Shown: positions 69-63,941 of the stretch, in pieces
Position numbering within the stretch: position 1 is the stretch's first letter
How the letters are laid out: each line of letters starts with the position of its first letter
Assembly: GCA_963816185.1 (NCBI GenBank)
Contig: CAWFJJ010000008.1
Coordinates: 343,010 to 407,009, forward strand
Direction: 5' to 3'
DNA: 64,000 nucleotides
DNA from: Thermoanaerobaculia bacterium
Lineage (GTDB): Bacteria > Acidobacteriota > Thermoanaerobaculia > UBA5066
The notes under the pieces: model-generated
The model's input: the letters and a program-made list of their open reading frames with translations, nothing else
Database searches by the model: none
What the model was told of the DNA's origin: nothing
Made by a program: the position numbers and the translations under genes

Positions 69-189
69 TAACAAATGTGTCAGTGAAACAGAGATGACAC
101 ACTACCGTGGAGCAGAAGAGGCCGCCTCGGGTGTCAAACAGAAAAAGAAAAACAACAGGAAAGAGAAAAGAGAGAAGAAGGAGAATCCC

Positions 190-672: not shown

Positions 673-689
673 AGCTCTACTTCTGACCT

Positions 690-727
690 GACGCCGCCCC
701 GGGTCTGCCGATCCGTCGGGCGGCGTC
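690..727 (+). terminator. Strong intercistronic stem-loop after the first pilin (mRNA stabiliser or attenuator)
   Basis: GACGCCGCCC...GGGCGGCGTC 10-bp stem with further inner pairing; no U-tract. Confidence 0.45.
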
Positions 728-788
728 GCCTCTGAAGGGTGTACCGAAAACGCATCCAGCCAGCCGTAACTGAAGAGGAGTCCCACCC

Positions 789-1310
789 GTGAAACGACCG
801 CTCGCCATCGCCTTCGCCGCCGCCCTCCTCGGGGCCGGCCCGCTTGCCGGAGCAAGCGCCACGGCGAGCCTGAGCGTGTCGGTCACGGTCTCCAGCAACT
901 GCCGGATCTCCGCTTCCCCTATCGGGTTCGGCGCGTACGACCCCGTCGTGGCGAACCTCGCGACGCCGGTGACGGGAACCGGAGGCGTCACGATCACGTG
1001 CACGCGGGGGACGTCGGCGTCCCTCACGCTCGGCCCCGGCGCGAACCCGTCCGGCTCCACGCGGCGGATGCGGGGCGGAACCGGATTCATCTCCTACGAG
1101 CTCTACATGCCGGCTTCCGAGAGCCCGGGCGCGCCGTGCAGCTTCGCGTCCCCGAGGGTGTGGGGAACGGCTGGCGACGCCGTCTTCACGCCCTCTTCCG
1201 CCCCCAGCCGGGATCCCAGGTCGTACAATGTCTGCGGTCGCATTCCAGAAGCTCAGGACGTCCTCGCCGCCACCTACTTCGATGCGGTCGTGGCAACGGC
1301 CAACTTCTGA
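789..1310 (+). CDS. Csu/spore coat U-domain pilin subunit
   Basis: GAGGAG RBS; signal peptide; ASLSVSVTV donor strand; FGAYDP; YFDAVVATANF. Confidence 0.87.
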   Translation: MKRPLAIAFAAALLGAGPLAGASATASLSVSVTVSSNCRISASPIGFGAYDPVVANLATPVTGTGGVTITCTRGTSASLTLGPGANPSGSTRRMRGGTGFISYELYMPASESPGAPCSFASPRVWGTAGDAVFTPSSAPSRDPRSYNVCGRIPEAQDVLAATYFDAVVATANF

Positions 1311-1327
1311 GAATAGGGGGCTCGGTC

Positions 1328-2115
1328 GTGGACGCAGGTCTTTCCGTTCTGCAGTTGAAGCTCCGCGCGGCGGGGCTGGCCCTTTTTCTTCTTATCGCGG
1401 CGCTTCCGGCTCCCGCGGCCACGTTCAAGGTCTCGCCGATCCAGATCTACCTATCCACCCACAGGACCACCGAGCTTCTCTCGGTCGAGAACCAGAGCAC
1501 CGAGACCGTGCGGCTTCAGGTGACCGCATTCGGCTGGAACCAGAGCCCCAAGGGCGAGATCGAGCTCTTGCCGACGGAGGACGTCGTGTTCTTCCCGTCG
1601 CTTCTGACGCTGGAGCCGGGAAAGGAACGGAAGATCCGCATCGGCGTCTCGAAGCCACCGGGAGCGGTCGAGAGAACGTATCGCGTGTTCGTCGAGGAGC
1701 TTCCCCCCTCGAAAAGCCCTCCGAAGTCGGAAACCGTTCCGAGGTGAAGGTCCTGACGCGCTTCGGAATTCCGATCTTCGTCCAGCCGGCGAAACTTACG
1801 AAGACGGGCGCGATCGAGGGCGCGAAGCTGGAGTCCGGCACGGTGAAGTTCCAGGTGAAGAACACCGGGAACGCGGCGTTTTCGGTCCTTTCGGTACGTG
1901 CGACCGGAGCGGCCGCCGGCGGCGCCCAGACCTTCGAGAACCAGGCGGCAGGCTGGTACGTCCTCGCCGGAGGCGAACGCGCGTTCGAGATCGCAATTCC
2001 GCCGGCCGACTGCCGGCGCACGAAGACGATTTCCGTCGAGGCGAAAACCGAGCGCGACGCCTGGAAGGCCTCGCTCGCCGTGGCGCCGGAGGCGTGCGAG
2101 CCGGCGTCGCGCTGA
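1328..2115 (+). pseudogene. PapD/CsuC-like pilus chaperone split by a one-base frameshift at C6 run 1703-1708
   Basis: N-half (VSPIQI...RLQV...FFPSLLTLEPG...ERTYRVFVEELPP) is in one frame, C-half (VLTRFGIPIFVQP...VKNTGNA) in another; one added C restores a single ORF. Confidence 0.8.
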
Positions 2116-4475
2116 GAGGGGCGTCGCATGCGCTCTGCCTGCTTGTGAGAGCGCGATGGCTCCTTCTCGTTCTCGCACTCGCGTTCACGGCGCCGGGATG
2201 GGCGAGTGAGACGCCGGCGCCCCCGCAGACGCGGGCCGCGAAGGCCGTCGTTCCACTCTCCGTCAACACGGTGCCGAAGGGCGACGTGCTCGTGGTCCTC
2301 GTGGGCGAGGACGTCCTGCTTCGAGTACGCGATCTCACGGCGGCTGGCGTGACCGGCTTCGCGGGGCGGCGCGAGACACGCGACGGCGAGGAGTGGGTCT
2401 CGCTCGCCTCCCTCGCTCCGGGCGCCTCCTACCGCTTCGATCCGGAGACGGTGACTCTGTCGGTGACCGTCCCTCCAGCGTGGCTCGCGGGGCAGGTCCT
2501 CAACCTCGCCATGCCGCGGCCCGCCGGCCTCGTTTACCTCTCGAGCCCGAGCCTGTTCGCGAACTACGCCGTCAACGTCACGGACGCCAAGACCTGGAAC
2601 GCGTTCGGCGAGGCGGGACTGAGCCTCGGTGGAAACCTCTTCTACAGCGCGGTGATGCGGGCGGACGACGGAAGCGTCGTCCGGGGCCTCACGAACGTCA
2701 CGCACGACGACCGCACGCGGCTCGTGAGATGGGTCGCCGGCGACTCCTTCACCGCGGCGGGAGGCGTCGGGGGCTCGCTTTTCCTCGCCGGTCTCAGCGT
2801 CTCGCGCAGCTTCGACCTCGACCCCTACTTCGTGCGCTACCCCTCGTTCGCGCTCACGGGCGCGGCCACGACGCCGTCCACGGTCGACGTGTACGTCAAC
2901 GGCAACATCGTGAAACGGGAGGCGATCGGGCCGGGCCCGTTCCAGCTTTCGAACATCCTCCTGCCGGCCGGCAACGGGACGACGCGCGTCGTCGTGCGGG
3001 ACGTGTTCGGACAGGAGCGGGAGATCACGAGCGGCTTCTACGCGTCGACCGCCGTCCTCGCGAAGGGGCTGTCGGAGTTCACGTACAACCTCGGATTCCG
3101 GAGGGACAACCTCGCGACGGAGAGCTTCGATTACGGCTCGCTCTCGTTCCTCGGCCGCCACCGGTACGGATTCTCGGACTCGCTGACCGCCGAGCTGCGC
3201 CTCGAAGCCGACGATCAGCTCGTGAGCGGGGGTCCCGGATTCGCGTGGCGGCTTCCGGTCGGCGAGATCGAGGGATACCTCGCGGCCAGCCGCGAAGGAG
3301 GGCGGACCGGCGGCGCGGCGTCGCTTTCCTATCGCTATGTCGGCCAGCCCGTGAATTACGGCGTCTTCGCAACCGCGCTCAGCCCCCATTACGCCGCGCT
3401 CGGCCTTTCCATCGACCAGGACCGGCCGCGCTGGGACGGAAATGCCTTCGTCGGAGTCCAGATCGGCCGGCTCGCGAGCCTCACGCTCCAGTACACCGGA
3501 ACCGTTCCCCGCGACACGCCGTCCTCGCAGCGCGCAGCGCTGTCGAGCTCTTCGAGTCTCACCCGCGACCTAAGCCTCTTCCTCTCGTTCGCGCGCGTCT
3601 TCCAGGGATCCACGCAGGGAAGCGAGGCTTTCATCGGGCTCAGCTACTTCCTCGGCCGGAACACGACCGCGCTCGCCTCGTACGGTCACCAGGATGGATT
3701 GAATACGGGGTCGATCGACGTCCAGAAATCGCTGCCCGTCGGTACGGGCTACGGGTATCACTTCAACGGGACCGCCGGGGACGGGCCAGGCAGCGCGAGC
3801 GGCGACGTCCAATACAACGCGTCCTTCGGCCGGTACGAGGCCTCGGTCCTGCGCCTCGGCGGCGAGACGTCGTCGACGCTCAGCGCGTCCGGAGGAATCG
3901 TCGTGCTCGGCGGAGCGGTGCTTCCGACGCGGCCCGTCGTGGACAGCTTCGCGCTCATCCGCGTGCCCGGCGTACCGGGCGTGCACGGAACCGCAAGCAA
4001 TCAGGACGTGGGAACGACGAACGGAAGCGGCGATCTCCTGGTTCCGAGCCTCATCCCGTATTACGGCAACCGGATCGGGATCTCGGACCGGGACGTGCCC
4101 ATCGATTATGAAATCGGCTCGGTGGAACGCACCGTGGCGACGCCGTATCGCGGCGGCGCGGTCGTCGAGTTCCCCGTGAAGCGCGTCACGACCGTGACGG
4201 GACGCGTGCTGATCGCCGAGGCGGGAACCGAGAAAGTTCCGGCGTACGGGGAGCTGACCGTAACGGGCCCGGACGGGGTGCCGCAAGCCTCACCCGTGGG
4301 CGGCGACGGGGCTTTCTACCTCGAGAACCTTTCTCCCGGCCGCTACCCGGCCGCCGTCGAGCACAAGGAAGCGGTCTGCCGGTTCACGCTCGTCGTCCCG
4401 GCGTCTCCGTCGGCGTTCGTCAACCTCGGAACATTGCGCTGCGCCGCGCCCAAGGAAAGCGGGAAGAACCCATGA
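2094..4475 (+). CDS. Fimbrial outer-membrane usher (CsuD-like); start may be about 2145
   Basis: About 790 aa; PSTVDVYVNG, GPFQL, VVVRDVFGQE usher motifs; lies between chaperone and pilin. Confidence 0.9.
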   Translation: MRAGVALRGASHALCLLVRARWLLLVLALAFTAPGWASETPAPPQTRAAKAVVPLSVNTVPKGDVLVVLVGEDVLLRVRDLTAAGVTGFAGRRETRDGEEWVSLASLAPGASYRFDPETVTLSVTVPPAWLAGQVLNLAMPRPAGLVYLSSPSLFANYAVNVTDAKTWNAFGEAGLSLGGNLFYSAVMRADDGSVVRGLTNVTHDDRTRLVRWVAGDSFTAAGGVGGSLFLAGLSVSRSFDLDPYFVRYPSFALTGAATTPSTVDVYVNGNIVKREAIGPGPFQLSNILLPAGNGTTRVVVRDVFGQEREITSGFYASTAVLAKGLSEFTYNLGFRRDNLATESFDYGSLSFLGRHRYGFSDSLTAELRLEADDQLVSGGPGFAWRLPVGEIEGYLAASREGGRTGGAASLSYRYVGQPVNYGVFATALSPHYAALGLSIDQDRPRWDGNAFVGVQIGRLASLTLQYTGTVPRDTPSSQRAALSSSSSLTRDLSLFLSFARVFQGSTQGSEAFIGLSYFLGRNTTALASYGHQDGLNTGSIDVQKSLPVGTGYGYHFNGTAGDGPGSASGDVQYNASFGRYEASVLRLGGETSSTLSASGGIVVLGGAVLPTRPVVDSFALIRVPGVPGVHGTASNQDVGTTNGSGDLLVPSLIPYYGNRIGISDRDVPIDYEIGSVERTVATPYRGGAVVEFPVKRVTTVTGRVLIAEAGTEKVPAYGELTVTGPDGVPQASPVGGDGAFYLENLSPGRYPAAVEHKEAVCRFTLVVPASPSAFVNLGTLRCAAPKESGKNP

Positions 4476-51052: not shown

Positions 51053-52608
51053 TCCCGCCCGACGTCACGCTCCTGAAAGATCGCCTCCTGAAGGCCGAGG
51101 AGCGGATCGCCGCCTTGAACCGGATTGGAATCGCCCTGTCCGCCGAGCGCGATCTCGAGAAGCTCCTCGAGACAATCCTGACCGAATCGCGACGCTTCTC
51201 GGACTCCGAGGCAGGCAGCCTCTACCTCGTGGAGGATTCGCCGGAGGGCCGGCGCCTGCGCTTCAAGCTCGCCCAGAACGACGCCGTGTCGTTCGCGTTC
51301 TCGGAGCGCACGGTGAGGGTGAACGAGGAGAGCCTCGCCGGCTGGGTCGCCGTTCACGGAGAGCCTCTCGTCCTCGAGGACGCCTACGCGCTTCCGAAGG
51401 GCGCGCCTTACCGGCACAACGACGAATTCGACGTCGCGACCGGATTCCGGACACGCGCGATGCTCGTCGTGCCGATGAAGGATCACCGAGGCGAGCTCGT
51501 CGGCGTCCTTCAGCTCATGAACCGGCGTGGGCGTTCGGCGGGAGAGTACGAGCCGTACCCGGCCGACCTCGTGCCCCTACTCCTTTCGCTCGCGACGCAG
51601 GCCGCGGTCTGCCTGAAGGCGAACAACCTGACGATGTCGATCCGGAAGCTCTTCGAGGATTTCGCGCGAGCCGCGATCGTGGCGGTCGAGCAGCGCGATC
51701 CGACGACCGCGGGCCACAGCAATCGCGTCTCGACTCTTTCCGTCACGCTCGCCTCTCTCGTGGACCGCGCCGCCGACGGCCCGTATGCCGCCGTGACGTT
51801 CTCACGGGAGGAGCTCCGCGAGATCGGCACGGCCGCCCTCCTCCACGATTTCGGCAAGATCTCGATTCCCGAGCGCGTCCTCGTCAAGGCGAAGAAGCTC
51901 TCGGAGGAAGGTCTCGGGAAGATCCGCGACCGCTTCGACTTCTCGCTCGCTTCGGAGGAGGCTCGAGACGCGCGGGCGCTTCTCGAGCGGCGCGCCCGCG
52001 AAGGGACAGCGGTCACCGCCGCCGACCTCGAGGCGCTAGACGCGGCGGCGGCCGCTCGCGCCCGTGACCTCCAGGACCTTTTCGAGGAGATCGTCTCGGC
52101 GAACGAGCCGACGGTCCTGCCGAGGGACGCGCGCGGCCGCCTCGAGCCGCTTCTGACGCGGATGATCCGCGATCGCCGCGGGCGCGAGACGACTCTTCTC
52201 CTCCCCGAGGAGTTCCGGCTGTTGTCGATCACGCAGGGCAGCCTCTCGGACGACGAGCGCCGCTCCGTGGAAAGCCATGTCTCGCATACGTGGCGTTTCC
52301 TCTCGACGATTCCGTGGACGCCGGACCTCGCCCGCGTTCCCGAGATCGCGTACGCGCATCACGAGAAGCTCGACGGAACGGGCTACCCCCGCGGGCTGGA
52401 CCGTGAGGGCATTCCACCCGCCGTCCGCGCGCTCACGGTCTGCGACGTCTACGACGCCCTCACCGCCTCCGACCGGCCCTACAAGAAGGCCGTCCCGCGC
52501 GACGCGGCGCTCGGCATCCTGGAGGGCGAAGCGAAACGCGACCGGCTCGACTCCTGGATGGTCGCGGCATTCATCGAGGGAAAAGTGTGGACGTCGCTCG
52601 CGCGCTGA
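51049..52608 (+). CDS. GAF + HD-GYP phosphodiesterase
   Basis: ATGA overlap; TAGHSNRV, LHDFGK, HHEKLDGTGYP. Confidence 0.9.
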   Translation: MIPPDVTLLKDRLLKAEERIAALNRIGIALSAERDLEKLLETILTESRRFSDSEAGSLYLVEDSPEGRRLRFKLAQNDAVSFAFSERTVRVNEESLAGWVAVHGEPLVLEDAYALPKGAPYRHNDEFDVATGFRTRAMLVVPMKDHRGELVGVLQLMNRRGRSAGEYEPYPADLVPLLLSLATQAAVCLKANNLTMSIRKLFEDFARAAIVAVEQRDPTTAGHSNRVSTLSVTLASLVDRAADGPYAAVTFSREELREIGTAALLHDFGKISIPERVLVKAKKLSEEGLGKIRDRFDFSLASEEARDARALLERRAREGTAVTAADLEALDAAAAARARDLQDLFEEIVSANEPTVLPRDARGRLEPLLTRMIRDRRGRETTLLLPEEFRLLSITQGSLSDDERRSVESHVSHTWRFLSTIPWTPDLARVPEIAYAHHEKLDGTGYPRGLDREGIPPAVRALTVCDVYDALTASDRPYKKAVPRDAALGILEGEAKRDRLDSWMVAAFIEGKVWTSLAR

Positions 52609-53268
52609 AGGCCGCGTCGAGCGCGGCGGCGATCGCCGCGTGGCTGGTGCTGTCGCCCTGCTCGGCCGCGGCGGCCCCCGCGAGATGGCACTTCTCGTTC
52701 GGGAAATGGCAGATGTCGGTTTTCTTCGAAAGGGAAGAGGGGAGAGGAGATACGACGCGGCTGCTCGTGGAGGCCGGAACCGGACGATTCGACTTCGTGT
52801 CCTCGCAGGATCCCTCGGGCCGGGACTCGACGGAGAGCATCCGCCGTCTCCCGGACGGCGAGACGCTCACGCGACGCCTCGTTCTCGCGACCTTCGCAGA
52901 AATCCCAGCGTGCGCTTCGGTCCGGGAGCCGGACGCGTGCGTCGTGCTGACGGGCGCGAACGGGACGCTCTCGGCTCCGATTTCCGGCTTCGCGGGCGAG
53001 TCGGGAACCCGTCTCCGGGCGCAGGCCGCCGGCCTCGTCTCGCCCGGGATGCGCGACGCGCTCTTCGCGCTCGCGCCGATTCTTCCGGCCGTCGCGGAGT
53101 TCGGCTCCTACACGAAGGACTTCCTCGGCCTCGTCTGGCCAGAGGGCTTCGCGAAATCGCAGTCGCTGAGGCGGGGCAAACGGACGAAAGGCTGCGATTT
53201 CGACGCGACGTTCGGATATCCCTGCGACGCGGACGCGCGGCGGCGGAGAAGAGAGGAGGTTCAGATGA
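52587..53268 (+). CDS. Exported hypothetical protein, in-frame fused to helicase in this sequence (probably lost its stop through an indel)
   Basis: Signal peptide ending AAAA; CDFDATFGYPC; alternative frame ends EERRFR-TGA overlapping the helicase ATG. Confidence 0.55.
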
Positions 53269-55370
53269 GCGACGACGCCCCCGCTCCGCGCCGATACGTC
53301 CTGCGCCGCGCCGCGGCGGCGAAGAGCTACCGCGTCGACTACGCGCGCGAGCTGAACGAGGAGCAGAAGACCGTGGTGTTCGCGCCCGACGGCCCGACGG
53401 TCGTCGTCGCGGGCGCCGGCTCGGGCAAGACGCGCACGCTCGTCTATCGCGTATCGCGCCTCATCGAGGACGGCGCCGATCCGGCGTCTCTGCTTCTCCT
53501 CACGTTCACGAACCGGGCGGCGCGCGAGATGAAACGCCGCGTCGAGTCGCTCATCGGCGCCGACCTGAACCGCGCGACGGCCGGGACGTTTCATTCGGTC
53601 GCCGCGCGCCTCTTGCGCCCGCACGCAGAGCTGCTCGGCTATCGCCACAACTTCGGCATCCTCGACTCGGAGGACTCGAAGGATCTCCTCGAGTCCGCGA
53701 CGTCCGACGTCGGAGTTCCCGTGACCGAACGGCGCTTCCCGAAGGGGGACCTCCTCCGGGCGATCGTGTCGCTCTGCGTGAACACGGGGCGGCCGCTCGA
53801 CGACGTGATCACGGCCGAGCATCCGCACTTCCTTCCCCAGCTCGACGCGATCCGTGCGGTCGTCCATCGCTATCTCGAGCGAAAGGTCTCATCGAACGGC
53901 ATGGATTACGACGACCTGCTCCTGAACTGGAAAAGACTCCTCACCGAGCACCCCGCGATCCGCAAGGCCTTCGGCGCGCGCTTCCGGCACGTCCTCGTGG
54001 ACGAGTACCAGGACGTCAACCGCCTGCAGGCCGATCTCGTGGACCTCGTCCTGAAGGATGTCGAAACCCCGAGCGTCATGGTCGTCGGCGACGATGCGCA
54101 GTCCATCTACTCCTTCCGCGGGGCCGACTTCGAGGCGCTCCTCGGGTTTCCGGACCGCCATCCGGGGACGCGCGTCTTCTCGCTCGAGACGAACTACCGG
54201 TCCACGCCCGAGATCCTCCGCCTCGCGGACGCGTCCATCGCGCAGAACACGCGGCGCTTCGAGAAGTCGCTCCACGCGACGCGCCCCGCGGGCGTTCCGG
54301 TCGCCGTCGTGGGCGCCTCGGATGTCGGACAGCAGGCCGAGTTCGTGGCCCAGCGCGTCCTCGAGCTGCGCGACGAGGGGACTCCGCTCGCCGAGATCGC
54401 CGTCCTCTACCGCGCGCACCATCAGGCCCTCGAGCTCCAGATCGAGCTGACGCACCGCGGCATCCCGTACGAGATCCGCTCGGGGCTGCGCTTCTTCGAG
54501 CAGCAGCACGTGAAGGACGTCCTCGCATACCTGCGCCTCCTCGTGAACCCGAAGGAGGAGACGGCCTTCAAGCGCATTCTCAAGCTCCTTCCGAAGGTGG
54601 GAGAGCGCACGGCCGCGACGCTCTGGGCCGCGGTTTCGGACACCCCCGACCCGGTCGGGTCCTTCCTGCGCCTCGACACGCGGAAGGCACCTGCCGGCGC
54701 GCAGGCCGCTCTGTCGAGGCTCGCCAGGACGCTCGAGTCGCTGCGGCGGCCGTCGCTTTTGTCGGCGCCGGCAGAAGCGATCCGGTTCGTCGTCGACGAG
54801 GGAGGCTATGCGGACGTCGCGAAGGCGCGGTTCGAGAACCACCAGACCCGCCTCGACGACCTCGAGGCGCTCGCGCAATTCGCGCTGCCGTACGACGGCG
54901 TCGAGAGCTTCCTCGAAGAAGTCACGCTCTTCGGTGAGCCCTCCGGCGAGACCGTCATCGCGGGCGAGAAGGACGACGAGCGCCTCGTCCTCTCGTCGAT
55001 CCACCAGGCCAAGGGTCTCGAATGGCGCGCCGTGTTCGTCCTCGGACTCGTCGAGGACCGTTTTCCGAACGTGAGGGCCGCGCGGACGGCCGAAGGCCTC
55101 GAAGAGGAGCGGCGCCTGTTCTACGTCGCCGCGACGCGGGCGAAGGACGAGCTTCTCCTCGTCCACCCCCTCGCATCGTTCGACCGCTATGGCATCGTCG
55201 TCGTGACCGAGCCGAGCCGATTCCTGCGCGAGCTGCCCGAGAACGTCTATGAGCGCTGGGTGCTCGAGCCGGGTCCGCCTCTCCCGGCGGTCTCGGGCGC
55301 GAGCGCCCCGAGGCTCGGCGAAGCGGACGACCCGACCGCCGAGGCGGACGAGGACGAGCCGGTGAACTGA
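53265..55370 (+). CDS. UvrD/PcrA/Rep family ATP-dependent DNA helicase
   Basis: GGAGG RBS; AGAGSGKT, TFTNRAA, VDEYQD, GDDAQSIY, NYRS, IHQAKGLEW, EERRLFYVA. Confidence 0.93.
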   Translation: MSDDAPAPRRYVLRRAAAAKSYRVDYARELNEEQKTVVFAPDGPTVVVAGAGSGKTRTLVYRVSRLIEDGADPASLLLLTFTNRAAREMKRRVESLIGADLNRATAGTFHSVAARLLRPHAELLGYRHNFGILDSEDSKDLLESATSDVGVPVTERRFPKGDLLRAIVSLCVNTGRPLDDVITAEHPHFLPQLDAIRAVVHRYLERKVSSNGMDYDDLLLNWKRLLTEHPAIRKAFGARFRHVLVDEYQDVNRLQADLVDLVLKDVETPSVMVVGDDAQSIYSFRGADFEALLGFPDRHPGTRVFSLETNYRSTPEILRLADASIAQNTRRFEKSLHATRPAGVPVAVVGASDVGQQAEFVAQRVLELRDEGTPLAEIAVLYRAHHQALELQIELTHRGIPYEIRSGLRFFEQQHVKDVLAYLRLLVNPKEETAFKRILKLLPKVGERTAATLWAAVSDTPDPVGSFLRLDTRKAPAGAQAALSRLARTLESLRRPSLLSAPAEAIRFVVDEGGYADVAKARFENHQTRLDDLEALAQFALPYDGVESFLEEVTLFGEPSGETVIAGEKDDERLVLSSIHQAKGLEWRAVFVLGLVEDRFPNVRAARTAEGLEEERRLFYVAATRAKDELLLVHPLASFDRYGIVVVTEPSRFLRELPENVYERWVLEPGPPLPAVSGASAPRLGEADDPTAEADEDEPVN

Positions 55371-55389: not shown

Positions 55390-56394
55390 CTAATGGATCG
55401 TCCGGCTGTTGTTCGTCTCGCTCGCCTCGACGACGGCATTGTCGGCGTCGACGACGACCGTGATCCCCGTGTCGTCGATGGCGACGGCGCAATAGGTGCA
55501 CACCTTGTTCGGCCCGACCTGCTCGACGCAGACGTTGGAGTTGGCCCGGTGGAACATGAACGTGGCGCTCGCGTTGGCCGCCAGATTGGGCACCGTCACG
55601 CGTTGAAGCTGGGTGCCGTCGGCCTTCTTGAGGACGACCGCGAAAGGCGTCGTGACGGCCGTGCCCGAGATGTTCCGGACGCCGAACTGGAGGTCGGGCT
55701 GCGTGAATTTCCGCTGGCCGGTGAACGCGCCGTTGCAGTCGTTCGGATTCGGGACGCACGTCCCGAAGCTCGTCGTGTTGCACGTCCGGAAGTTGACGAA
55801 GTCCGTCGGCGTGAGGTCGGGCGGAAGCGCCGGAGACGCGGGCGCAGCGCCAGCTCCGAGCTGGCGCGGGATGAAGCCGCCGGGTGCGGGTGTCGGCGCG
55901 GGCCGGGGCGTGGGCGGCGGGGCGCACGACGAGACGATCGTCAGCGGGATGATCTCGTGCCCGGTGAGCCAGTTCACCTGGACGTTGCCGTTTCCGAGGG
56001 CGGCGCCCGTGCCCGCGACGATCTTGACGGTCACGTAACCCGTCTGCACCGGCTGGCCGAACGAGACTCCGCCGCTGGGGCTGTTGTGGGAGCCGTGGCT
56101 TGTGATCGAAGAGCTGAGGCCGGAGATGTTGTCCTGAGTCCCGGTCGCGAAGTCTGCGCCGAAGCCGTCGAGCTCGACGAGGAACGTCGCGCCGCGGGGG
56201 ACCGGGATCCTGCGTCCTGACGTCAGGAAGTCGCCGCTGATCTCAGGGTTCGAGGCGAACGACGAGCAGAGGGCCGGGCCGGAAACGTGATTGATGAAGA
56301 TCGTGTCGATCTTGGCCGCGGCCGGAAGAGCGAACGAGAGAACCGCAGCAAGAACGAGAAATCCGAGTCGGGAGGACGCGAGTGGGTGGCGCAT
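55390..56394 (-). CDS. Exported protein: N-terminal Ig-like domain, Pro linker, C-terminal CARDB-like domain
   Basis: Signal peptide; VRNISG...VVVDADNAVVEASETNN; paired Cys. Confidence 0.78.
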   Translation of the reverse strand: MRHPLASSRLGFLVLAAVLSFALPAAAKIDTIFINHVSGPALCSSFASNPEISGDFLTSGRRIPVPRGATFLVELDGFGADFATGTQDNISGLSSSITSHGSHNSPSGGVSFGQPVQTGYVTVKIVAGTGAALGNGNVQVNWLTGHEIIPLTIVSSCAPPPTPRPAPTPAPGGFIPRQLGAGAAPASPALPPDLTPTDFVNFRTCNTTSFGTCVPNPNDCNGAFTGQRKFTQPDLQFGVRNISGTAVTTPFAVVLKKADGTQLQRVTVPNLAANASATFMFHRANSNVCVEQVGPNKVCTYCAVAIDDTGITVVVDADNAVVEASETNNSRTIH

Positions 56395-56406
56395 CGCAAG
56401 CCTCTC

Positions 56407-56934
56407 TCAGTGTCCGAGGCAGGACTGCACGTCCGCGTCGATCGCCGCGAGCTCGCGCTGGAGCTCCGCTTTCCGCGCGGCGAGGGGAGCGCAGCACTTC
56501 TGGAGGACCGTCTTGGCCTTGGCCAGCTCCTTGGCCGCCTGGAGGGCGCAGAATTTCGCCTGGTCCTTGACGACTCCCGCGACGCACGCGTCGAGCGTCT
56601 GGCCCGCGCACTTCTGGGCGAGCGCCACGTTGCTGAGCGCGTTGAACGCGGCGAGCGGGCTGCCCGCCGGCGGGTTGTTGACGTCGAGGCACGCCGTGTG
56701 CTCGGCCTTCGCCGCGGCGACCGCGCTGTTGAACTCGGTGGTGCAGGGGCTCGCGAGCGTCAGGTGGGGAAACTGCCTCCCGAAATCGATCACCTGAAGA
56801 TCGACGGCCTTCTTCAGGGCGCTCTTCACGTCGACCGGGTTGAACGTCTGAGATTTCGGTTGCGCCGCGGCGGGGCGGGCGAGCGCGAGGCCCGCGAGCG
56901 TGGCGAGCGTGAGGGTCGTACAGGTCTTTCTCAT
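56407..56934 (-). CDS. Exported Cys-rich helical hypothetical protein
   Basis: AAGGAG RBS; signal peptide; eight Cys in an Ala-rich mature chain. Confidence 0.75.
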   Translation of the reverse strand: MRKTCTTLTLATLAGLALARPAAAQPKSQTFNPVDVKSALKKAVDLQVIDFGRQFPHLTLASPCTTEFNSAVAAAKAEHTACLDVNNPPAGSPLAAFNALSNVALAQKCAGQTLDACVAGVVKDQAKFCALQAAKELAKAKTVLQKCCAPLAARKAELQRELAAIDADVQSCLGH

Positions 56935-56975
56935 TGTTCTCTCCTTCCCCCGTTTCGGGGCCTTCTGCGGAGAGA

Positions 56976-57002
56976 AGCGCGTTCGGGGAGAGAACCGGCT
57001 CA
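56976..57002 (-). promoter_or_regulatory. Candidate ECF promoter, copy 1
   Basis: TGAGCCGGTTC-TCTCCCCGAAC-GCGCT, same blocks and spacing as copy 2. Confidence 0.65.
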
Positions 57003-59501
57003 GCGCGGGCGAGGATCGGACGCCGGGCCGGCGGGACAAGCCGCCACCTTCGCGAGAAGCGCGTTGCGATCGGGAACGTCCTCGCCGGGGAGCTTCCCGC
57101 CTTTGGAGAGGCGGTTCCAGACCTCGGCGCTCTTCCGCCAGAAGTCGCACGGGACCGGTTGCATGGGACTCCCGCCGGCCTGCTTTCGGGACGCCTGGCC
57201 CGCGTCTCCGGCCGCCGCATAGATCTCCGCCAGCGAGGTCCAGCAGAAACCGCAGTCCGGGTCCGCTTCGACGACCTGCTCCATCACGGCGACCGCGTTG
57301 CGTTGGCTCTCGAGGGCGCGAAGGAAATCGCCGGAGCGCCGCTCGACGTCGCCCACCGTCGAGCGGTAGTTCGCGCGCGCGATCTGCAGGTACGTGCTCT
57401 TCGGGTCTCCGTCGGCGAGCTCTTCGACGATCCGCGCCGCTTCCCGGACCTTCTCGAGCGCTTCGGGGATCTCGTCGACATCCGCGAGGAATTCGCCGAC
57501 GTCGTGGAGGCTGGTCGCGAGCTCGAAGCGTATGCGGGCATTCGAGGAATCGTCCTTGAGGAGCTGGCGTCGCCACTCGAGCGCCGCCCTTCCGGTCTCG
57601 AGCGCCTCCCGCGCCTTCGCCAGCCGCGAGAGCATCGCGGCCTGGTCGTAGAGGGCCTTGCCGATTCCGGCGCGCGCCGCCTCGTCCCTGGGGTTCGCCA
57701 CGAGAGCTTCGCGAAAGACTGCTTCGGATTTTCGATACGCCGCGAGGGCGGAGCGGAAATCGCCCGTTCGCGACAACGCGTAACCGAGGAGATGCTGGGC
57801 GGCGGCGAGCCCGGCCCTTCCTTCTCCGACGGGCGCGCCGGAATCGAGACTCTCGCGAATCTCCACGGCGAGACGGGCATGTCGAAGAGCGTCGGCCGTT
57901 TCGTTCGAGCGAGACAGGAAGCTTGCAAGACGCATCTCGGCACGCGCGAGATCGTCGCGATCGAGGGCTGTCGAATCGGCCGACGCGAGGATTCGTTCGC
58001 GAAGGGCGAGAGCCTTGAGGTACGCGTCGCGTGCGCCTGCGGTGTCGCCCAGGCTCGACCACACGCCGCTTCCGAGAACGTCCCCCAGCTTCTCGTACGC
58101 TTCCGCCATCTCGCGCCGGAGCGGAAAGGACGCGCCGGCCTCCTTCTCGAGGTGCGAGAGCTGCTCGAGAGCCCGCCGGATGAGCAGCGCGCGCGCCTGC
58201 GTCGTCCCGGGCAGGTTCTGAATGGCGTCGTACTGCTCGAACAGAAACGACTTCACGAGGGCCCGGACGTCCGCGTACCGGCGTTCGGCGCGCTCCCGCT
58301 CGAGGCGCGCGGCGTGGGCCTGGACGACGGCGATCACGGTGAGAACGGCGAGGAGCGACATCGAGCCGGCCGTGATGGCGACGGCGATCCGGTGGCGGCC
58401 CGCGAACTTGCGTACGCGGTAGAGGAGCGTGTCCTTTCGCGCCGTGACGGGCAGGCCTTCGAGCACGCGGCGCAAGTCGCCCGAGAGCTGCTCGACCGTC
58501 GCGTACCGCCGCTCGGGCTCTTTTCGGAGCGCCATGGCGACGACACTCTCGAGATCGTCGGAGATCCCGCCTCCGAGACGGGCAGGCCCCTCTTCACAGA
58601 CCGTGCGCACGATCATCTCGGCCGAGCGGCCCTTGAAAGCGAAGGGCAGCCGGCCCGCGAGAAGCTCGTAAAGCACGACCCCGAGCGAGTAGATATCGCT
58701 CGCGGTCGTGATCGTGTCACCTCGCACCTGCTCGGGGCTCGCGTACTCGGGAGTCATGAGGCGCCCGAGCGCGCCCGTGGCCCCGGGCGTCAGCTCGGAT
58801 ACGGCCGGATCGAGCACTTTCGCGAGGCCGAAATCGAGCAGCTTCGGCTCGCCTTCCGCCGTCACGAGGATGTTGCCGGGCTTCAGGTCCCGGTGGACGA
58901 CGAGGTGCCGGTGGGCGTAGGCGACCGCCGCGCAGATCTTCCGGAAGAGGGCCACCTTCTCGTCGATCGAAAGCGCCAGGCGGCGGGCGTAGTCGAGAAG
59001 GTGCTCGCCCCGGACGTATTCCATGACGAAGAACGGGCGGCCGTCGGGCGTCGTTCCGCCGTCGAGAAGGCGCGCGATGTTCGGATGCTCGAGACCGGCG
59101 AGAATCTGGCGCTCGTTCCGGAAGCGCTTCCCGATCGCGGCGCCTGAGAACCCTGAAGAGATCACCTTGAGGGCCGCGTCCTGCTGAAACGCTCCGTCGG
59201 CGCGGACCGCGAGAAACACGCGACCCATGCCGCCCTGGGCGATCTCACGTTCGACGCGCCAGGCGCCCAGGACCGCACCCGGAGGAAGCGTGTCTTCGTC
59301 TTCCGAGGCATGGAGCAGGGGCCCCTCGAGGAACCCTCCCGCCGCATCGGCCGAGGCCACGAGACGCCCGACCTCCTCGCGCAGCGCAATGTCGCGGGAT
59401 CCGAGATCAGTCAGGAAGGCGTCCCGTTCCGCGCCTTCCCGCTCGAGGGCCTCCTCGAGCAGCCTGCGCACCTCGCTCCAGCGGCCCGGATCGAGACTCA
59501 C
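57000..59501 (-). CDS. Membrane Ser/Thr kinase with TPR-like sensor region, ECF-associated
   Basis: GGMGRVF, ERQILAGLEHPNIARLLDGG, HRDLKPGN, DFG, TPEYASPEQ; TM helix; TPR-like repeats. Confidence 0.92.
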   Translation of the reverse strand: MSLDPGRWSEVRRLLEEALEREGAERDAFLTDLGSRDIALREEVGRLVASADAAGGFLEGPLLHASEDEDTLPPGAVLGAWRVEREIAQGGMGRVFLAVRADGAFQQDAALKVISSGFSGAAIGKRFRNERQILAGLEHPNIARLLDGGTTPDGRPFFVMEYVRGEHLLDYARRLALSIDEKVALFRKICAAVAYAHRHLVVHRDLKPGNILVTAEGEPKLLDFGLAKVLDPAVSELTPGATGALGRLMTPEYASPEQVRGDTITTASDIYSLGVVLYELLAGRLPFAFKGRSAEMIVRTVCEEGPARLGGGISDDLESVVAMALRKEPERRYATVEQLSGDLRRVLEGLPVTARKDTLLYRVRKFAGRHRIAVAITAGSMSLLAVLTVIAVVQAHAARLERERAERRYADVRALVKSFLFEQYDAIQNLPGTTQARALLIRRALEQLSHLEKEAGASFPLRREMAEAYEKLGDVLGSGVWSSLGDTAGARDAYLKALALRERILASADSTALDRDDLARAEMRLASFLSRSNETADALRHARLAVEIRESLDSGAPVGEGRAGLAAAQHLLGYALSRTGDFRSALAAYRKSEAVFREALVANPRDEAARAGIGKALYDQAAMLSRLAKAREALETGRAALEWRRQLLKDDSSNARIRFELATSLHDVGEFLADVDEIPEALEKVREAARIVEELADGDPKSTYLQIARANYRSTVGDVERRSGDFLRALESQRNAVAVMEQVVEADPDCGFCWTSLAEIYAAAGDAGQASRKQAGGSPMQPVPCDFWRKSAEVWNRLSKGGKLPGEDVPDRNALLAKVAACPAGPASDPRPR

Positions 59502-60067
59502 GTCTGCGCCCCGCTCAGCTCTGCGAAGAGAAAGGCTCGCGCCGACGCCCAGGCGCGTTTGACCGTGGCGGGCGAGGAGCCGAGCACGTCGGCCGTCTCC
59601 TCGATCGTGAGGCCTCCGAAGTACCGGAGCTCGACGAGCCGGGCCTGCACGGGGTCGAGAACGGCGAGCTTCTCGAGTGCGGCGTCGAGAGCGACGAGGT
59701 CCGCGCTCATTTCGCCGCCCGGCGCAGGGAGGTTGGTCAACGTCACGCGCTCCGCCGCGCCGCCCCGCTTGGCCGCAGACCGTCTTCGGGCGTGATCCAC
59801 GAGGATCTGGCGCATGGCGCGCGCGGCCACGGCGAAGAAATGTGTGCGGTCACTCCAGGGAATGTCGGCGTCGCCCACGAGCTTGAGGTACGTTTCGTGG
59901 ACGAGCCCTGTCGGCACGAGCGTGTGGTTCGCGCGCTCACGCCGGAGGTAGGCGTCGGCGCGGCGTCGGAGATCGCCGTAGACGAGCTCCATCAGCTCGC
60001 GAAACGCGGCTTCGTCGCCCGCTCGCCATTTCAGGAGCAGGCGCGTCACGGCTCCGATTTCCGGCAC
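59498..60067 (-). CDS. ECF sigma factor, TIGR02999/ECF43-like
   Basis: HTLVPTGLVHETYLKL, HFFAVAARAMRQILVDHAR, VELRYFGGLT; overlaps the kinase start. Confidence 0.9.
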   Translation of the reverse strand: MPEIGAVTRLLLKWRAGDEAAFRELMELVYGDLRRRADAYLRRERANHTLVPTGLVHETYLKLVGDADIPWSDRTHFFAVAARAMRQILVDHARRRSAAKRGGAAERVTLTNLPAPGGEMSADLVALDAALEKLAVLDPVQARLVELRYFGGLTIEETADVLGSSPATVKRAWASARAFLFAELSGAQT

Positions 60068-60092
60068 GTTGCGCGGATTCTAGCCGCGGCCG

Positions 60093-60119
60093 TGAGCCGG
60101 TTCCGCACGGAAATGCGCT
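60093..60119 (+). promoter_or_regulatory. Candidate ECF promoter, copy 2
   Basis: TGAGCCGGTTC-CGCACGGAAAT-GCGCT, 10 nt before ATG 60130. Confidence 0.65.
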
Positions 60120-60129
60120 CAGTGATCAG

Positions 60130-62220
60130 ATGAGGCGGCGTTTCGAATTCGGCGAATGGTGGAGGCCCGCGATGGCTCTCGCCCTCCTCTGCGCATTCGG
60201 GTCGCCCTCGGCACGGTCCGAAGAGCTCGCCGTGACTCTGGATACCCGAGGCCGGGAATGGGTCGGCCGCCGGGACCCGGTGGAGCTCGTGCTCTCGCGC
60301 GAGGTGACGGAAAAGGAAGGGCGGATCGCGGTCTTGATCGACGGGACGGATGTCTCCGACGTTCTCGAAAGCTCGCCGCGTGGCCGCCGATACCGGCCAC
60401 GCCTTGCGCCGCTTCCTTCGGGCGAGCTGGAAGTCGTCGTGACTCTCGTCTCGGGATCCGGGTGGAAGGAGATCGCGCGTTTGAAGCTGCACGTGCTCAC
60501 GGCCGGCGGCTTCGAGAAGGCGGAAATCGCGCCGAAAATCGACCTGACGCTCAAGGGCCAGCTCTCCGAGGGCCACACGCCCGATGCGGCCGCCCCGCCC
60601 CGGCGGACTTTTCAGGATCTGACCGGCCAGGCGAACCTCGACATCGAGCTCGAGCGTTCGCGGGCGACGCTGGGTCTCCAGATGGGCCTGCAGGGCGCGG
60701 AACGCGTCGAGGATGCCCTGCGCTTCGGCGAGCGGGGAACGGAGGCGGACCGCATCGACCTCGCGAGCTGGGGCACGAAGATCGGCATCCCGGGAGCCAC
60801 GCTCGAATGGGGCAACCTGACGGTCGGCGCCTCCCGGCATCTCATCAACGGATTCAGCAGCCGGGGGGGCCGGGCGGCGTTCTCGCTGGGCCCGGTCTCG
60901 CTCTCGTTCGCGGCCTTGAACGGGTCTTCGATCGTCGGGTGGGACAACTTCTTCGGCCTCGAGACGGCGCAACATCGCGTTTATGCCGGGACGCTCGGCC
61001 TCGAGCTCGTCCCCTCTGTGCCCGGCGCTCTTCGGATCGACACGACGCTTGTCGACGGGTCCCTTCTGCCGCGCTCGAACGTCAACCGCGGCTTCGTTTC
61101 GGACGCCGAGACGAGCCGTGGCGGCGGCGTGTCTCTCGCTTCGAGCCTTTTCGCAGGCCGCGTCCGGGTCGAAGGCGACTATTCGCGCAACCGCTTCGAG
61201 GCGCCGACGGACCCGCTGCTCGAGCAGGGCGTAAAAGTCGTTCCCCTCGCCGCCACGTGGCGAGCGGCCTACTTCGTCTCGGCGAACGTCGACGTCCTGA
61301 AGGGAGTGACCCTCGGCCCCTCGACGCCCGTGACCTTCACGCTCGCCTACCACCGGGAGCGGATCGACCCGCAGTACCGGAGCGTGGCCGCCACGCTGCA
61401 ATCGGATCAACAGCAGGACGTCGTCGAGGCGAACGCGGGCCTCGGAGCCGCCGCCCTCCAGCTCTCGTACTCGTGGCTCGAGGACAACCTCGCAGACGTC
61501 GCCTCGATCCTCAAGACGAAGACACGGCGAGCGGCGGGTCAGATCGCCTTGCCGCTCGGGGCGCTGGGTGGAAATTCGGCGCCGGCCTGGTGGCTGCCGC
61601 AGGTGAGCTGGAGCGTGAACGAGACTCACCAGTTCGCGGGGAACGCTCCGCTGGGAGGAGGCTTCTCGCCCACGCAACTTCCCGACCAGGTCAGCCTCGG
61701 CCAGACGGCTGCGGTGGATTGGAATGCCGGTCCGGCCCGGTTCGGCTGGCACCTCAATTACTCGGACCAGGACAACCGCCAGGTCGGGCGCGAGACGGCG
61801 GACTTCCTCACGAACGCGAACGTCGCCTCTCTCAATCTGACCCCCTCCCCGAAAATCGACCTGGGTCTCGAGTTCGAATGGGATCGGGCGGCCGCGAAGG
61901 AGACGGGCGGCGTCGACCGCACAAAGCGTTATCAACTGACGTTCGGACTTCGGCCCGTCGCGCCGCTGTCGCTCACGACGAACGCCTCGCGAACGGACGG
62001 CGGAAACGACGCCGACACATCGTCCTCGCGAATCTGGACCGTGGACGCGCAGACCGCGTGGCGGTTCGAACCGCCCCGGCGGGGGAAACACGGGGTCACC
62101 GGACAGATCCTGCTGCGATACGCGTTTCAGCAGACGCGCGCGCGCGATGTCCTCCTCGGCGTCGCGAGCTTTCGAAAGACGTGGGTGGTCTCCTCGGGGA
62201 TCAGCCTGAGCGCCTTCTAG
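60130..62220 (+). CDS. Large putative outer-membrane beta-barrel protein of unknown family
   Basis: Signal peptide; small N-terminal beta domain; long run of amphipathic strands; ends GISLSAF. Confidence 0.72.
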   Translation: MRRRFEFGEWWRPAMALALLCAFGSPSARSEELAVTLDTRGREWVGRRDPVELVLSREVTEKEGRIAVLIDGTDVSDVLESSPRGRRYRPRLAPLPSGELEVVVTLVSGSGWKEIARLKLHVLTAGGFEKAEIAPKIDLTLKGQLSEGHTPDAAAPPRRTFQDLTGQANLDIELERSRATLGLQMGLQGAERVEDALRFGERGTEADRIDLASWGTKIGIPGATLEWGNLTVGASRHLINGFSSRGGRAAFSLGPVSLSFAALNGSSIVGWDNFFGLETAQHRVYAGTLGLELVPSVPGALRIDTTLVDGSLLPRSNVNRGFVSDAETSRGGGVSLASSLFAGRVRVEGDYSRNRFEAPTDPLLEQGVKVVPLAATWRAAYFVSANVDVLKGVTLGPSTPVTFTLAYHRERIDPQYRSVAATLQSDQQQDVVEANAGLGAAALQLSYSWLEDNLADVASILKTKTRRAAGQIALPLGALGGNSAPAWWLPQVSWSVNETHQFAGNAPLGGGFSPTQLPDQVSLGQTAAVDWNAGPARFGWHLNYSDQDNRQVGRETADFLTNANVASLNLTPSPKIDLGLEFEWDRAAAKETGGVDRTKRYQLTFGLRPVAPLSLTTNASRTDGGNDADTSSSRIWTVDAQTAWRFEPPRRGKHGVTGQILLRYAFQQTRARDVLLGVASFRKTWVVSSGISLSAF

Positions 62221-62232
62221 GACCAGAACAAG

Positions 62233-63504
62233 ATGCGACATCGACCCCTGCTCCTTCTTTCGATCCTGCCTCTGGCGGCGGCTCCCGTGCGGGCCGCGAT
62301 TCAGCGGAGCCCCACGGGCGTGAACGTGAGCAGTCAGGGCGCAACGACCGTCTTCATCACGTTCGCGGGCCTCGTGAACCAGACACCGGTCGAAGCGACG
62401 TGGTGCGGCGAGGTCATCCCGGCGGCGCCCGACCTCGGTTTTCGGTGCGACCCGAACACGATCTACGGTCGGCTTCCCCTGCGTTACGACCAGTCCCGGC
62501 TCGCGGGCGGTCTCTACACCGACATCATGACGATCCCCGCGAACGTGGCGCGGCGCGCCTATCAGGCCGCCGAGCGGGGGGCGCTCTCGCCGTTCTTCTA
62601 CGTGCGCCGGTTCGTCTCCGGCTCTGGCGGTCCGGACGAGTACGTCTTCGTCACGTGCCGTCCGTCGGCCGGCGGTGCGGGAACGCCGCTCTCGCTCACG
62701 GACGTCGCGCTGTCGTTCGACATCGACCGCCCGGTTCTCTCGGTCCAGCGCGGGGAGATTCCGCCGAAGGTCAAGGCCGACATCCGCTACACGGGCACGG
62801 GCCGCCTCAAAGGCAGGTGGGAAGTCGTCTTCCCGCAGGATGAGCCGCCTTCGGATCGCGACCTTCTGACGGAGGCGACGCTGCCGCCGGCCGAACGTCC
62901 GCTCCAGCGTCGCTACACCGAGCTCGATCGCTTCGACGTGTTTCTCCCGCCGACGGGCAGAGTCACGCTGCCGGGCCCGGACCCGAAGAGGATTCCCACG
63001 GCGTCCGAAGGACTCCATCAGATCCTGCTCCGCATCGAGGCGTCCGACGACAAGGAAGGGGACTCGAGCCTCGTGGCGCTCGACGCCGGCGCCGCCGTGA
63101 TCCACTCGGGTGGAGTGGCCGGATTCCCCCTCCCGACTCTCCGCTACTTCGTGGGAACCGCCCCCGCCCAGCTTCTCCCCGGGGCCACGGGCGGGCTGAT
63201 CCTTCTCGCGCCCGCTCATCGGTCGTTGCTCAAGGCCGGCGACCCTGTGATCTTCCGCTTCACCCGGGTCGGATCGGCTGCCGGCTACCGCCTCGTCGTC
63301 CGGCGCGCGGACGGAGCCGTTCTCGTCGAGGCCTTCCTCGGTTCCGGCACAGACACCTATACGGCGCCGCCCTTTCTCGCGGAACGTGCCAAGGATGCGG
63401 TCCTCCGCTGGACGGTGGAGGCCCTCGGAACGGACGGCCAGACGCTGGCCTCGAGCGGAGCGGCCGAGCTGCGCTTCATCACGCCCCCGAAGGAAACGCC
63501 GTGA
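62233..63504 (+). CDS. Exported multi-domain beta-rich hypothetical protein
   Basis: Signal peptide; co-oriented 12 nt after the barrel gene; strong coding bias. Confidence 0.75.
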   Translation: MRHRPLLLLSILPLAAAPVRAAIQRSPTGVNVSSQGATTVFITFAGLVNQTPVEATWCGEVIPAAPDLGFRCDPNTIYGRLPLRYDQSRLAGGLYTDIMTIPANVARRAYQAAERGALSPFFYVRRFVSGSGGPDEYVFVTCRPSAGGAGTPLSLTDVALSFDIDRPVLSVQRGEIPPKVKADIRYTGTGRLKGRWEVVFPQDEPPSDRDLLTEATLPPAERPLQRRYTELDRFDVFLPPTGRVTLPGPDPKRIPTASEGLHQILLRIEASDDKEGDSSLVALDAGAAVIHSGGVAGFPLPTLRYFVGTAPAQLLPGATGGLILLAPAHRSLLKAGDPVIFRFTRVGSAAGYRLVVRRADGAVLVEAFLGSGTDTYTAPPFLAERAKDAVLRWTVEALGTDGQTLASSGAAELRFITPPKETP

Positions 63505-63941
63505 AACGTGCCCTCGCAACCGCCGTCCGTCTGATCTTGTTTCTCGTCCTCGCAGCGCCCGTGACGGGCTCGGTGCAATCCTTCGGGGCGGCCTCGCTGT
63601 GCGGAGGGCGCCGTTTCGAGCCCGGCCAGACGCTCCCGCTCGTGCGCGGGACGTCGCTCGAGCTCGTCGTCACCGGTTTTGGCGTGGACAACGCGGACCG
63701 GATCGAGGCGATCGCGCTTCCGGGCGTCAAGGTCCGCCTCGCCGGTCGGCGCGCCTTTCCGGTGCCGCAGCTGACGCTCGCGCTGAAGATCGATGCGAAC
63801 GCGGCCGTGGGCAAGGGCGAGCTCCGGCTCAGGTATCCCGTTGAGGTCGCGGGCTACGACCGCATTCTCGCCGAGGTGCTCGCGCCTGCCGCCGCGCCCT
63901 GTTCGACGCCAGGCCCGTCGCGTACGCCGCCTCGCCGATGA
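63501..63941 (+). CDS. Exported Ig-like domain protein, paralog of the N-domain of 55390-56394
   Basis: AAGGA RBS, GTGA overlap; LC...LPLVRGTSLELVVTGFGVD...AAVGKGEL. Confidence 0.7.
   Translation: MKRALATAVRLILFLVLAAPVTGSVQSFGAASLCGGRRFEPGQTLPLVRGTSLELVVTGFGVDNADRIEAIALPGVKVRLAGRRAFPVPQLTLALKIDANAAVGKGELRLRYPVEVAGYDRILAEVLAPAAAPCSTPGPSRTPPRR

Follow-up and report, generated by a model that had tools for sequence, protein, structure and literature searches.

A linked gene pair for a predicted barrel and plug in an acidobacterial genome as a candidate two-partner surface anchor or export pore

What is the purpose of a large predicted outer-membrane barrel that is encoded together with a secreted partner, next to a kinase-linked sigma factor and among secreted proteins that fit no familiar pathway? 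The question is raised by a 64,000-nucleotide stretch of Thermoanaerobaculia bacterium DNA (assembly GCA_963816185.1, contig CAWFJJ010000008.1, positions 343,010 to 407,009; hereafter the window), which is the final 64 kb of contig C8 in a host genome of 5.09 Mb. The locus holds seven genes (Table 1): C encodes the barrel and D its partner, S and K a sigma factor of the extracytoplasmic function (ECF) type and a Ser/Thr kinase, and A, B and E secreted proteins. The analysis indicates that C and D very probably form a genuine complex for which no name exists and, with a probability of roughly 60%, that this complex is a two-partner surface anchor or a gated export pore for secreted proteins that are variable and rich in disulfides.

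The GTDB genomes were scanned with D, which gave 113 confirmed matches, and the best 80 loci were examined. C was located by tblastn directly upstream of D in 77 of them; of the remaining three, L048 and L070 retain a C fragment at a contig edge and L013 starts within D. C is immediately 5′ of D in all 79 evaluable loci. The same arrangement is seen in four of four loci of a distant subfamily (one of them a weak partial C at a contig end) and in L095, the only readable locus of the fusion type. In comparison, tblastn homologues of the other genes are scarce among the 80 loci (S in 15, K in 23, E in 4, A in 3 and B in 2). Because the C-D linkage is invariant, whereas S, K, A, B and E are patchy and the regulators are exchangeable, C-D is regarded as the core of the system.

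According to the record titles, the 80 loci span Acidobacteriota, Gemmatimonadota, Gamma- and Betaproteobacteria, Cyanobacteria, KSB1, Rhodothermales and others, and the pair is carried by soil and sediment bacteria of several phyla. The closest named homologues of the window are from Thermoanaerobaculia. The host genome has a single C and a single D. D is distributed patchily, occurring in 6 of 24 genomes of the same genus and in 14 of 301 genomes of the phylum, host included; this phylum tally and the domain co-occurrence counts given below include one unpublished genome (G025), which no other result uses. Pairwise identities of C and D are correlated (Spearman 0.69, with an identical nearest neighbour in 37 of 65 cases), a result that is not counted as support because kinship alone yields it.

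Several individual loci merit separate description. The distant subfamily comprises L106:5747-8901, L107:7095-10285, L108:1-2919 and L109:8187-10144, and its D proteins have neither the Cys hairpin nor the helical insert of the second domain. In one Chamaesiphon locus (L044:8087-9243) the barrel gene is broken by an ISL3-family transposase, and the module can therefore be lost. Frameshifts in D or C at L103:8969-10172, L005:7983-9938 and L068:7888-9911 reflect either sequencing error or decay. Two records titled Bifidobacteriaceae (L034 and L050) contain the module and neighbours as found in Vicinamibacterales loci, and are probably mislabelled or mixed bins.

The AlphaFold2 model of C, calculated from a 99-sequence alignment with a predicted local distance difference test (pLDDT) score of 91, consists of an immunoglobulin-like (Ig-like) domain at residues ~35-122 followed by 26 strands spanning residues 130-695. 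The barrel is unbroken up to the C-terminal residue and contains no internal plug. Long conserved loops emerge on one face; opposite them are the short turns together with the Ig-like domain and the aromatic residue at the C-terminus, an arrangement that in the model is the usual outer-membrane topology. Among the 99 homologues, 74 end in Phe and 8 in Tyr. One loop (317-323) has a pLDDT below 50 when C is modelled alone. Fold searches returned generic barrels only, the best being MtrB (PDB 6r2q; Z 17.5, root-mean-square deviation 6.3 Å over 453 aligned residues, 7% identity), with ushers at Z 13-14; in Foldseek, LptD ranked no better than 32nd, with template modelling scores of 0.2-0.3. A C profile matched none of the PDB sequences, and the best 30 ESM Atlas clusters are all hypothetical. 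Pfam searches with 65 C sequences at an E-value of 0.05 gave no Omp85/ShlB/POTRA, usher, TonB-receptor/plug, LptD or MtrB match; seven weak families appeared on one or two of the 65 sequences as generic barrel or repeat matches.

D is modelled as three β-sandwich domains, D1 to D3 (pLDDT 89.9), and is well conserved, with a mean column identity of 55% across phyla (78 sequences). D1 has one pair of Cys that is invariant, conservation is high throughout D2, and D3 is FN3-like (Z 11); the region linking D2 to D3 ranges from 14 to 28 residues among the 78 sequences. The protein has a Sec-type signal and no evident lipobox. Fold searches, in which D1 and D2 were not queried singly, returned only generic Ig and FN3 chains. 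The D profile had no match among PDB sequences, and Pfam found neither a β-helix/TPS-type family nor PapD on the 78 sequences.

Complex prediction with residues 33-696 of C and D1-D2 supports binding of D by C. Scores of 0.89, 0.87 and 0.89 were obtained, the best of three controls scoring 0.00; the mark for this score is reached by 116 of 157 solved pairs and by 2 of 215 mismatched pairs, a benchmark that applies only roughly because our own alignments were supplied. At least 95% of the contacts agree between runs, and the partner pLDDT is at least 84. D contacts 11 of the 13 long-side loops as well as alternating polar positions on strands 16-26, down to the C-terminal end; the mean hydropathy of the contacted strand face is −1.3, compared with +0.5 for the opposite face. 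The model shows no D contact with the short-side turns or the N-terminal Ig-like domain of C. The strongest contacts are formed by loop 5 (the segment 317-323 that is disordered in C alone) with the first strand of D2, and by loops 6-7 with D1. These contacts would place D1 at the outer mouth with its N-terminus free and D2 in the lumen as a plug. Invariant residues of D1 are also present outside the modelled interface. The initial annotation of the window had described a barrel with an accessory protein and had reckoned with two findings that would speak against it, namely a barrel from a characterised family with an unrelated role and genes that fail to co-localise in other genomes. Sequence and fold searches found no such family, and co-localisation holds in all 79 evaluable loci; the two genes thus stand as an obligately linked module that has not been described before and whose secreted neighbours vary, while the notion of D as a loose accessory gives way to that of a predicted plug.

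Natural fusions of D bear on this arrangement. A D profile search of 1.84 billion representatives retrieved 2,485 proteins at an E-value of 0.001, many of them via the generic D3, and the best 150 were examined. Extensions of D longer than 100 residues lie N-terminally in 18 of these and C-terminally in one; some of the N-terminal extensions may reflect wrong start calls. ASH/HYDIN Ig arrays precede the D module in seven of the 150, two of them confirmed as choice-of-anchor D domains, and in four others D2-D3 follows other repeats with no D1 match. Members of one fusion cluster belong to Casimicrobium and bear the name choice-of-anchor D protein. A second, N-terminal copy of D1 was seen by eye in the fusions and reached the profile threshold only in P0215. 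In L095 the gene order is C, D-fusion, a secreted protein with lectin domains, an ECF43-like sigma factor and a kinase. The fused N-terminal arrays match the prediction of the model, in which D2-D3 as an anchor would leave the preceding part displayed outside.

In working principle C-D appears most like the two-partner anchoring of HMW1/HMW1B, though it lies outside that family. As described in passages of PMC3297439, the barrel gene there likewise comes first and is followed by a separately encoded partner, which passes through its own barrel with the N-terminus outside and the C-terminus in the periplasm; the same would apply to C-D, in part by the model and in part by inference. The TpsB proteins of type Vb systems, according to the same passages, are 16-strand Omp85 barrels with two POTRA domains, whereas the model of C shows 26 strands and a single Ig-like domain; TpsA is a β-helix with an N-terminal TPS domain, whereas D is a β-sandwich protein with disulfides whose conserved part is C-terminal. 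Having neither an Omp85/POTRA barrel nor a TPS β-helical passenger, C-D was not assigned to type Vb.

MtrA of the MtrAB system sits inside the MtrB barrel. MtrAB, the best fold match to the C barrel, thus resembles C-D in having a separate lumen-filling protein, and differs from it in that D contains no haem motif. A porin-cytochrome reading was rejected, as no open reading frame (ORF) across 81 loci has more than two CxxCH motifs and none of the 65 C sequences matches MtrB. LptE is the separately encoded lipoprotein plug of LptD, and LptDE is a core system, whereas C-D is patchy and D is a three-domain protein with no evident lipobox. The two resemble each other in having a separately encoded plug, which for D is predicted, and in the number of strands, the LptD barrel being 26-stranded according to PMC13721041. 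The absence of an LptD match among the 65 C sequences and the accessory distribution of C-D led to the rejection of an LptDE reading.

The genes beside C-D suggest what the pair may serve. Immediate co-oriented neighbours are positive by a signal-peptide heuristic in 56 of 91 cases, compared with 37 of 155 genes at least six genes away, and contain 1.75 Cys per 100 residues as opposed to 0.67 for distant genes; the number of Cys is even in 65 of the 69 neighbours that have two or more. The neighbours are often tandem paralogues and vary even inside a genus. Among 84 hand-picked from 171, 13 have a CARDB domain and 58 have no Pfam family. The Ig-like domain shared by A and E (the E-type domain) was found in 13 of 87 loci and the A-type CARDB domain in 12 of 87, the present locus included in both counts, and unnamed neighbour domain families recur beside C-D across several phyla and under different regulators. 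B homologues adjoin C-D in L002 and L045, and the E homologues in L102 and L105 are longer, at about 270-310 residues. The E-type profile gave nothing usable against PDB sequences. Of 300 genomes of the phylum taken in a single draw, host excluded, 13 carry D; the E-type domain occurs in five genomes, three of them with D, and the A-type CARDB domain in three, two of them with D. A, B and E are likely candidate cargo, which would be exported through the barrel.

Some neighbours are distinctive in their own right. Four end in small domains with 8-16 Cys (L057:6362-6922, L079:5515-7536, L051:4448-4852 and L008:6913-7842); these Cys-rich ends recall disulfide-knotted peptides, and no Pfam family was found in those scanned. 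In a neighbour at L095:10355-12646, two ricin-B-type lectin domains flank short Gly/Ala-rich repeats and a Pro-rich tract.

A possible mode of operation is as follows. To judge from their signal peptides, C and D would cross the inner membrane by Sec. C would fold into a barrel of 26 strands, and both the Ig-like domain and the C-terminal Phe would face the periplasm. In the modelled pose D1 would be clasped by the long loops at the outer mouth, its N-terminus and Cys hairpin free, and D2 would fill the lumen as a separately encoded plug; D3, which lies beyond the D1-D2 part covered by the complex model, would presumably stay in the periplasm and act as a stopper. The long Ig arrays fused ahead of D in some bacteria would be displayed outside, so that D2-D3 would serve as a surface anchor recognised by its own barrel. 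At loci with a short D, such as the present one, the likely clients would be the co-regulated A, B and E. These would either pass through the barrel upon displacement of the plug or dock on D1, which is the weakest step of the scheme. The kinase would phosphorylate Thr53 of S and, as homology and motif conservation suggest, the pair would then switch on both operons in the manner of PknS/EcfK via TGAGCC-N16-GCG(C/T).

The regulator itself is of a familiar kind. S matches PF07638 (E-value 2e-53) and TIGR02999 (216 bits, cut-off 126), and no anti-sigma gene lies beside it. Inspection by eye, with no alignment to EcfK, showed that its sigma-2.2 region lacks the acidic DAED motif and has V-P-T53-G preceding LVHE. 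As described in PMC13147305 and PMC8999054, ECF43 sigma factors have an uncharged sigma-2.2 motif with a conserved Thr (QTTA/STTA); the ECF grouping follows PMC7826278. K contains a Pkinase domain (Pfam, E-value 1e-44), tetratricopeptide repeats (TPRs) and one hydrophobic segment at 372-390, and 9eed_A (E-value 1e-48) is the sole PDB sequence below an E-value of 1e-45. With an uncharged sigma-2.2 region bearing Thr53 and a kinase closest to 9eed, the S/K pair belongs to a known kind of regulator. The Xanthomonas PknS/EcfK and Vibrio PknT/EcfP pairs (PMC13147305, PMC8999054) likewise have a sigma gene overlapping that of a membrane Ser/Thr kinase; their targets are a type VI system and polymyxin resistance genes, whereas here the target would be the C-D cassette. 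At other loci, the place of S and K is taken by winged-helix-TPR, BTAD-TPR or TPR-CHAT proteins, FHA/sigma-54 activators with a kinase, or two-component systems. Conversely, the host genome has seven further ECF43-like sigma factors (on contigs C24, C25, C28 and C30), most of which are accompanied by a kinase and lie opposite genes for secreted repeat or Ig proteins, and neither C nor D is near any of them. The initial annotation was right in assigning S to the ECF43 type with an adjacent kinase, but its view of a system built around this pair is not supported, given an S homologue in only 15 of 80 loci, the other regulators and the seven sigma factors without C or D. Likewise, of the co-occurrence that it proposed to test for C and D homologues, the variable secreted neighbours were found and a conserved ECF-kinase pairing was not. 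The ECF43 sigma/kinase pair is a known, interchangeable switch and not the core of the system.

The two operons share a promoter-like motif. The pattern TGAGCC-GGTTC-N11-GCGCT has exactly two copies in the 5.09-Mb genome, a count that is circular because the pattern was derived from those two sites (Table 1); the looser TGAGCC-N16-GCGCT has 12. Four further ECF loci in the close group lend independent support: TGAGCC-N16-GCG(C/T) heads the cassette in L002 (on either side), L005, L101 and L103. The motif is absent from L102, which has no ECF gene in the 19.9 kb fetched. A weight matrix built from seven sites detected a TGATCC-N16-GCG variant in 4 of 12 other ECF43-linked loci, two of them near-identical, and also in one locus without an ECF43 match; it gave no clean site in L095. 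On these sequence comparisons the motif is firm only inside the close group. Scans for sigma-70 promoters and terminators were at chance level. An inverted TGAGA...TCTCA-like motif was seen by eye upstream of the barrel gene at L011:7591, L025:7688, L027:1351 and L050:7672; these loci are headed by a kinase and an FHA/sigma-54 activator, for which the motif is a candidate site.

Display or export of proteins by C-D is considered moderately probable, and a number of observations weigh against it. Barrels with an inserted partner exist among solved structures, and the modelled pose may therefore be partly memorised. The domain co-occurrence numbers are small, with two of the genomes coming from a single family, and near-duplicate loci enter the signal-peptide counts. 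By eye, 108 candidate neighbours have no common sorting motif at either terminus; the neighbours are structurally mixed, many being helical or lectin-like. In 22 of 72 loci there is no heuristic-positive co-oriented neighbour within two genes; some of these are misses of the heuristic, but several loci of cyanobacteria do look bare. In the host genome, secreted proteins are also encoded opposite ECF43-kinase pairs that have no C-D, and two secretins are present, so that the neighbours have other possible exits. Finally, the barrel is tightly plugged and no energy source is encoded nearby, so that a static anchor fits better than a repeatedly used pore. That C-D is a full secretion pathway for its neighbours is held only tentatively, at somewhat less than even odds. 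Equally tentative is the broader proposal of an undescribed class of diderm secretion and display system, in which a 26-strand pore would export folded, disulfide-bonded periplasmic proteins and be gated and finally occupied by its plug, D2-D3 would be a portable C-terminal anchor, and the clients (lectins, Ig/CARDB proteins, small Cys-knot-like and helical proteins) would be swapped between strains under contact-sensing regulators.

The bare cyanobacterial loci, the ECF43 pairs that face secreted genes without C-D and an A-like gene of genome G079 that lies on another contig than C-D would all fit a self-contained envelope complex, structural or adhesive, with the neighbours merely co-regulated behind the same switch. 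This explanation is judged rather unlikely: C-D is accompanied by the same unnamed domain families in several phyla and under different regulators, and these families are rare in genomes without D.

The pair could alternatively signal across the envelope. D1, sometimes on a stalk, would bind an outside ligand, and D3 or the Ig-like domain of C would signal to the periplasmic TPRs of the regulator, inducing the secreted genes and the device itself. Consistent with this, a regulatory or signalling gene lies within seven genes in 43 of the 50 loci having at least 6 kb upstream (a count without background control, in genomes where kinases are very abundant), in many of the 36 sampled, TPRs follow a kinase, winged-helix or BTAD domain or precede a CHAT domain, and D1 has invariant residues off the modelled interface. 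However, the regulators are unrelated in type, the seven other ECF43-like sigma factors of the host, mostly with kinases, function without a linked C-D, and the cyanobacterial loci mostly have no such regulators. Signalling is judged improbable.

By analogy to TonB-dependent and SusCD systems, C could be the pore of a gated uptake channel with D as its plug and lid and the secreted neighbours as substrate-binding proteins, which would explain the plug in the lumen and the lectin-like and Ig-like neighbours; those systems, though, have a 22-strand barrel, an N-terminal plug, a TonB box and a lipoprotein lid, whereas C has 26 strands, an N-terminal domain without lumen contact in the model and no TonB-receptor or plug family match among 65 sequences, no TonB/ExbBD, ABC-transporter or hydrolase cluster recurs among the clusters present in at least four loci, and an uptake plug has no need of long Ig stalks fused to D, all of which makes this function very unlikely.

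Equally remote is a divergent chaperone-usher system, with C as usher, D as periplasmic chaperone and the Ig-like neighbours as pilins polymerising into a fibre. The layout of barrel, multi-Ig protein and tandem paralogous Ig proteins with Cys pairs is suggestive, ushers are found by the fold search, FimD/PapC-type barrels, like C, could in principle pass folded Ig domains, and chaperone-usher operons share variable Ig-like secreted proteins with C-D loci. Nevertheless, an usher has an internal plug and C-terminal periplasmic domains, neither of which is present in the 26-strand model of C; D is modelled in the lumen, not touching the N-terminal domain of C, and many neighbours are helical or lectin-like. 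Homology was rejected for both proteins: hhalign gave a probability of at most 3.4% for D against two PapD-like alignments (98.8% for the positive control) and 0.4% for C against the usher-like protein of the host genome. D may have a very remote common fold with PapD-like chaperones. The window also contains a conventional chaperone-usher-like cluster at ~94-4475(+), which served as the comparison; it includes a PapD_N match at 1427-1720 (E-value 6e-9) whose second half is apparently in another frame, a 793-residue usher-like ORF at 2094-4475 and two small pilin-like ORFs.

On the family comparisons and a literature search limited to text, in which sequence matching was impossible, C-D belongs to none of the families compared; open-licence PMC and bioRxiv full texts contained no description of the pair that this search could find. 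Few known routes carry folded proteins across the outer membrane or fix them in it. If C-D does anchor or export proteins, it would add such a route, shared by Acidobacteriota, Gemmatimonadota, Proteobacteria, Cyanobacteria and further lineages. It would also explain secreted 'hypothetical' and choice-of-anchor D proteins without a known sorting signal, and could provide a portable anchor for surface display. Cultured cyanobacteria carry the pair (L052, L067 and L077).

Table 1 Features of the C-D locus, in window positions
Feature	Position	Strand	Description
A	55390-56394	-	Secreted, 334 aa; N-terminal Ig-like E-type domain, Pro-rich linker, C-terminal CARDB variant
B	56407-56934	-	Secreted, 175 aa, Ala/Cys-rich, probably helical
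Promoter-like site TGAGCC-N16-GCGCT	56976-57002	-	Upstream of B-A; overlaps kinase stop codon
K	57000-59501	-	Membrane Hanks-type Ser/Thr kinase, C-terminal TPRs, PknS-like
S	59498-60067	-	ECF43-type sigma factor
Promoter-like site TGAGCC-N16-GCGCT	60093-60119	+	Upstream of C-D-E
C	60130-62220	+	696 aa, predicted outer-membrane β-barrel, last residue Phe
D	62233-63504	+	423 aa, secreted, three β-sandwich domains; predicted plug and anchor of C
E	63501-63941	+	Secreted, 146 aa, single E-type Ig-like domain and Pro-rich tail

The seven ORFs and their domains agree with the initial annotation (by Pfam for A, K and S), as do the promoter-like motif, present at both sites and kept with its spacing in the four close-group loci, and the paralogous domain common to the two operons. 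The latter is documented by 24% identity between the N-terminal domain of A and E over 152 columns (E-value 3e-6 in a 7-sequence database) and by the capture of both in one iterated profile. The C-terminal domain of A matches CARDB (Pfam, E-value 7.7e-6) as a variant with extra Cys pairs, and B has eight Cys past its signal region. Signal peptides were called by eye and hydropathy rather than with SignalP, that of C being the least clear. No significant Pfam or NCBIfam family was found for B, C, D or E, and NCBIfam gave nothing usable for A to E. B has 13 homologues including itself, the sole named one being 'hypothetical'. Nothing can be read beyond the end of the window, because the contig stops there. 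On the other side of the locus, a 927-residue ORF at 52587-55370(+) has UvrD domains only from residue 256 on; its first 225 residues resemble a separate signal-peptide protein, and it may represent two genes or a fusion.

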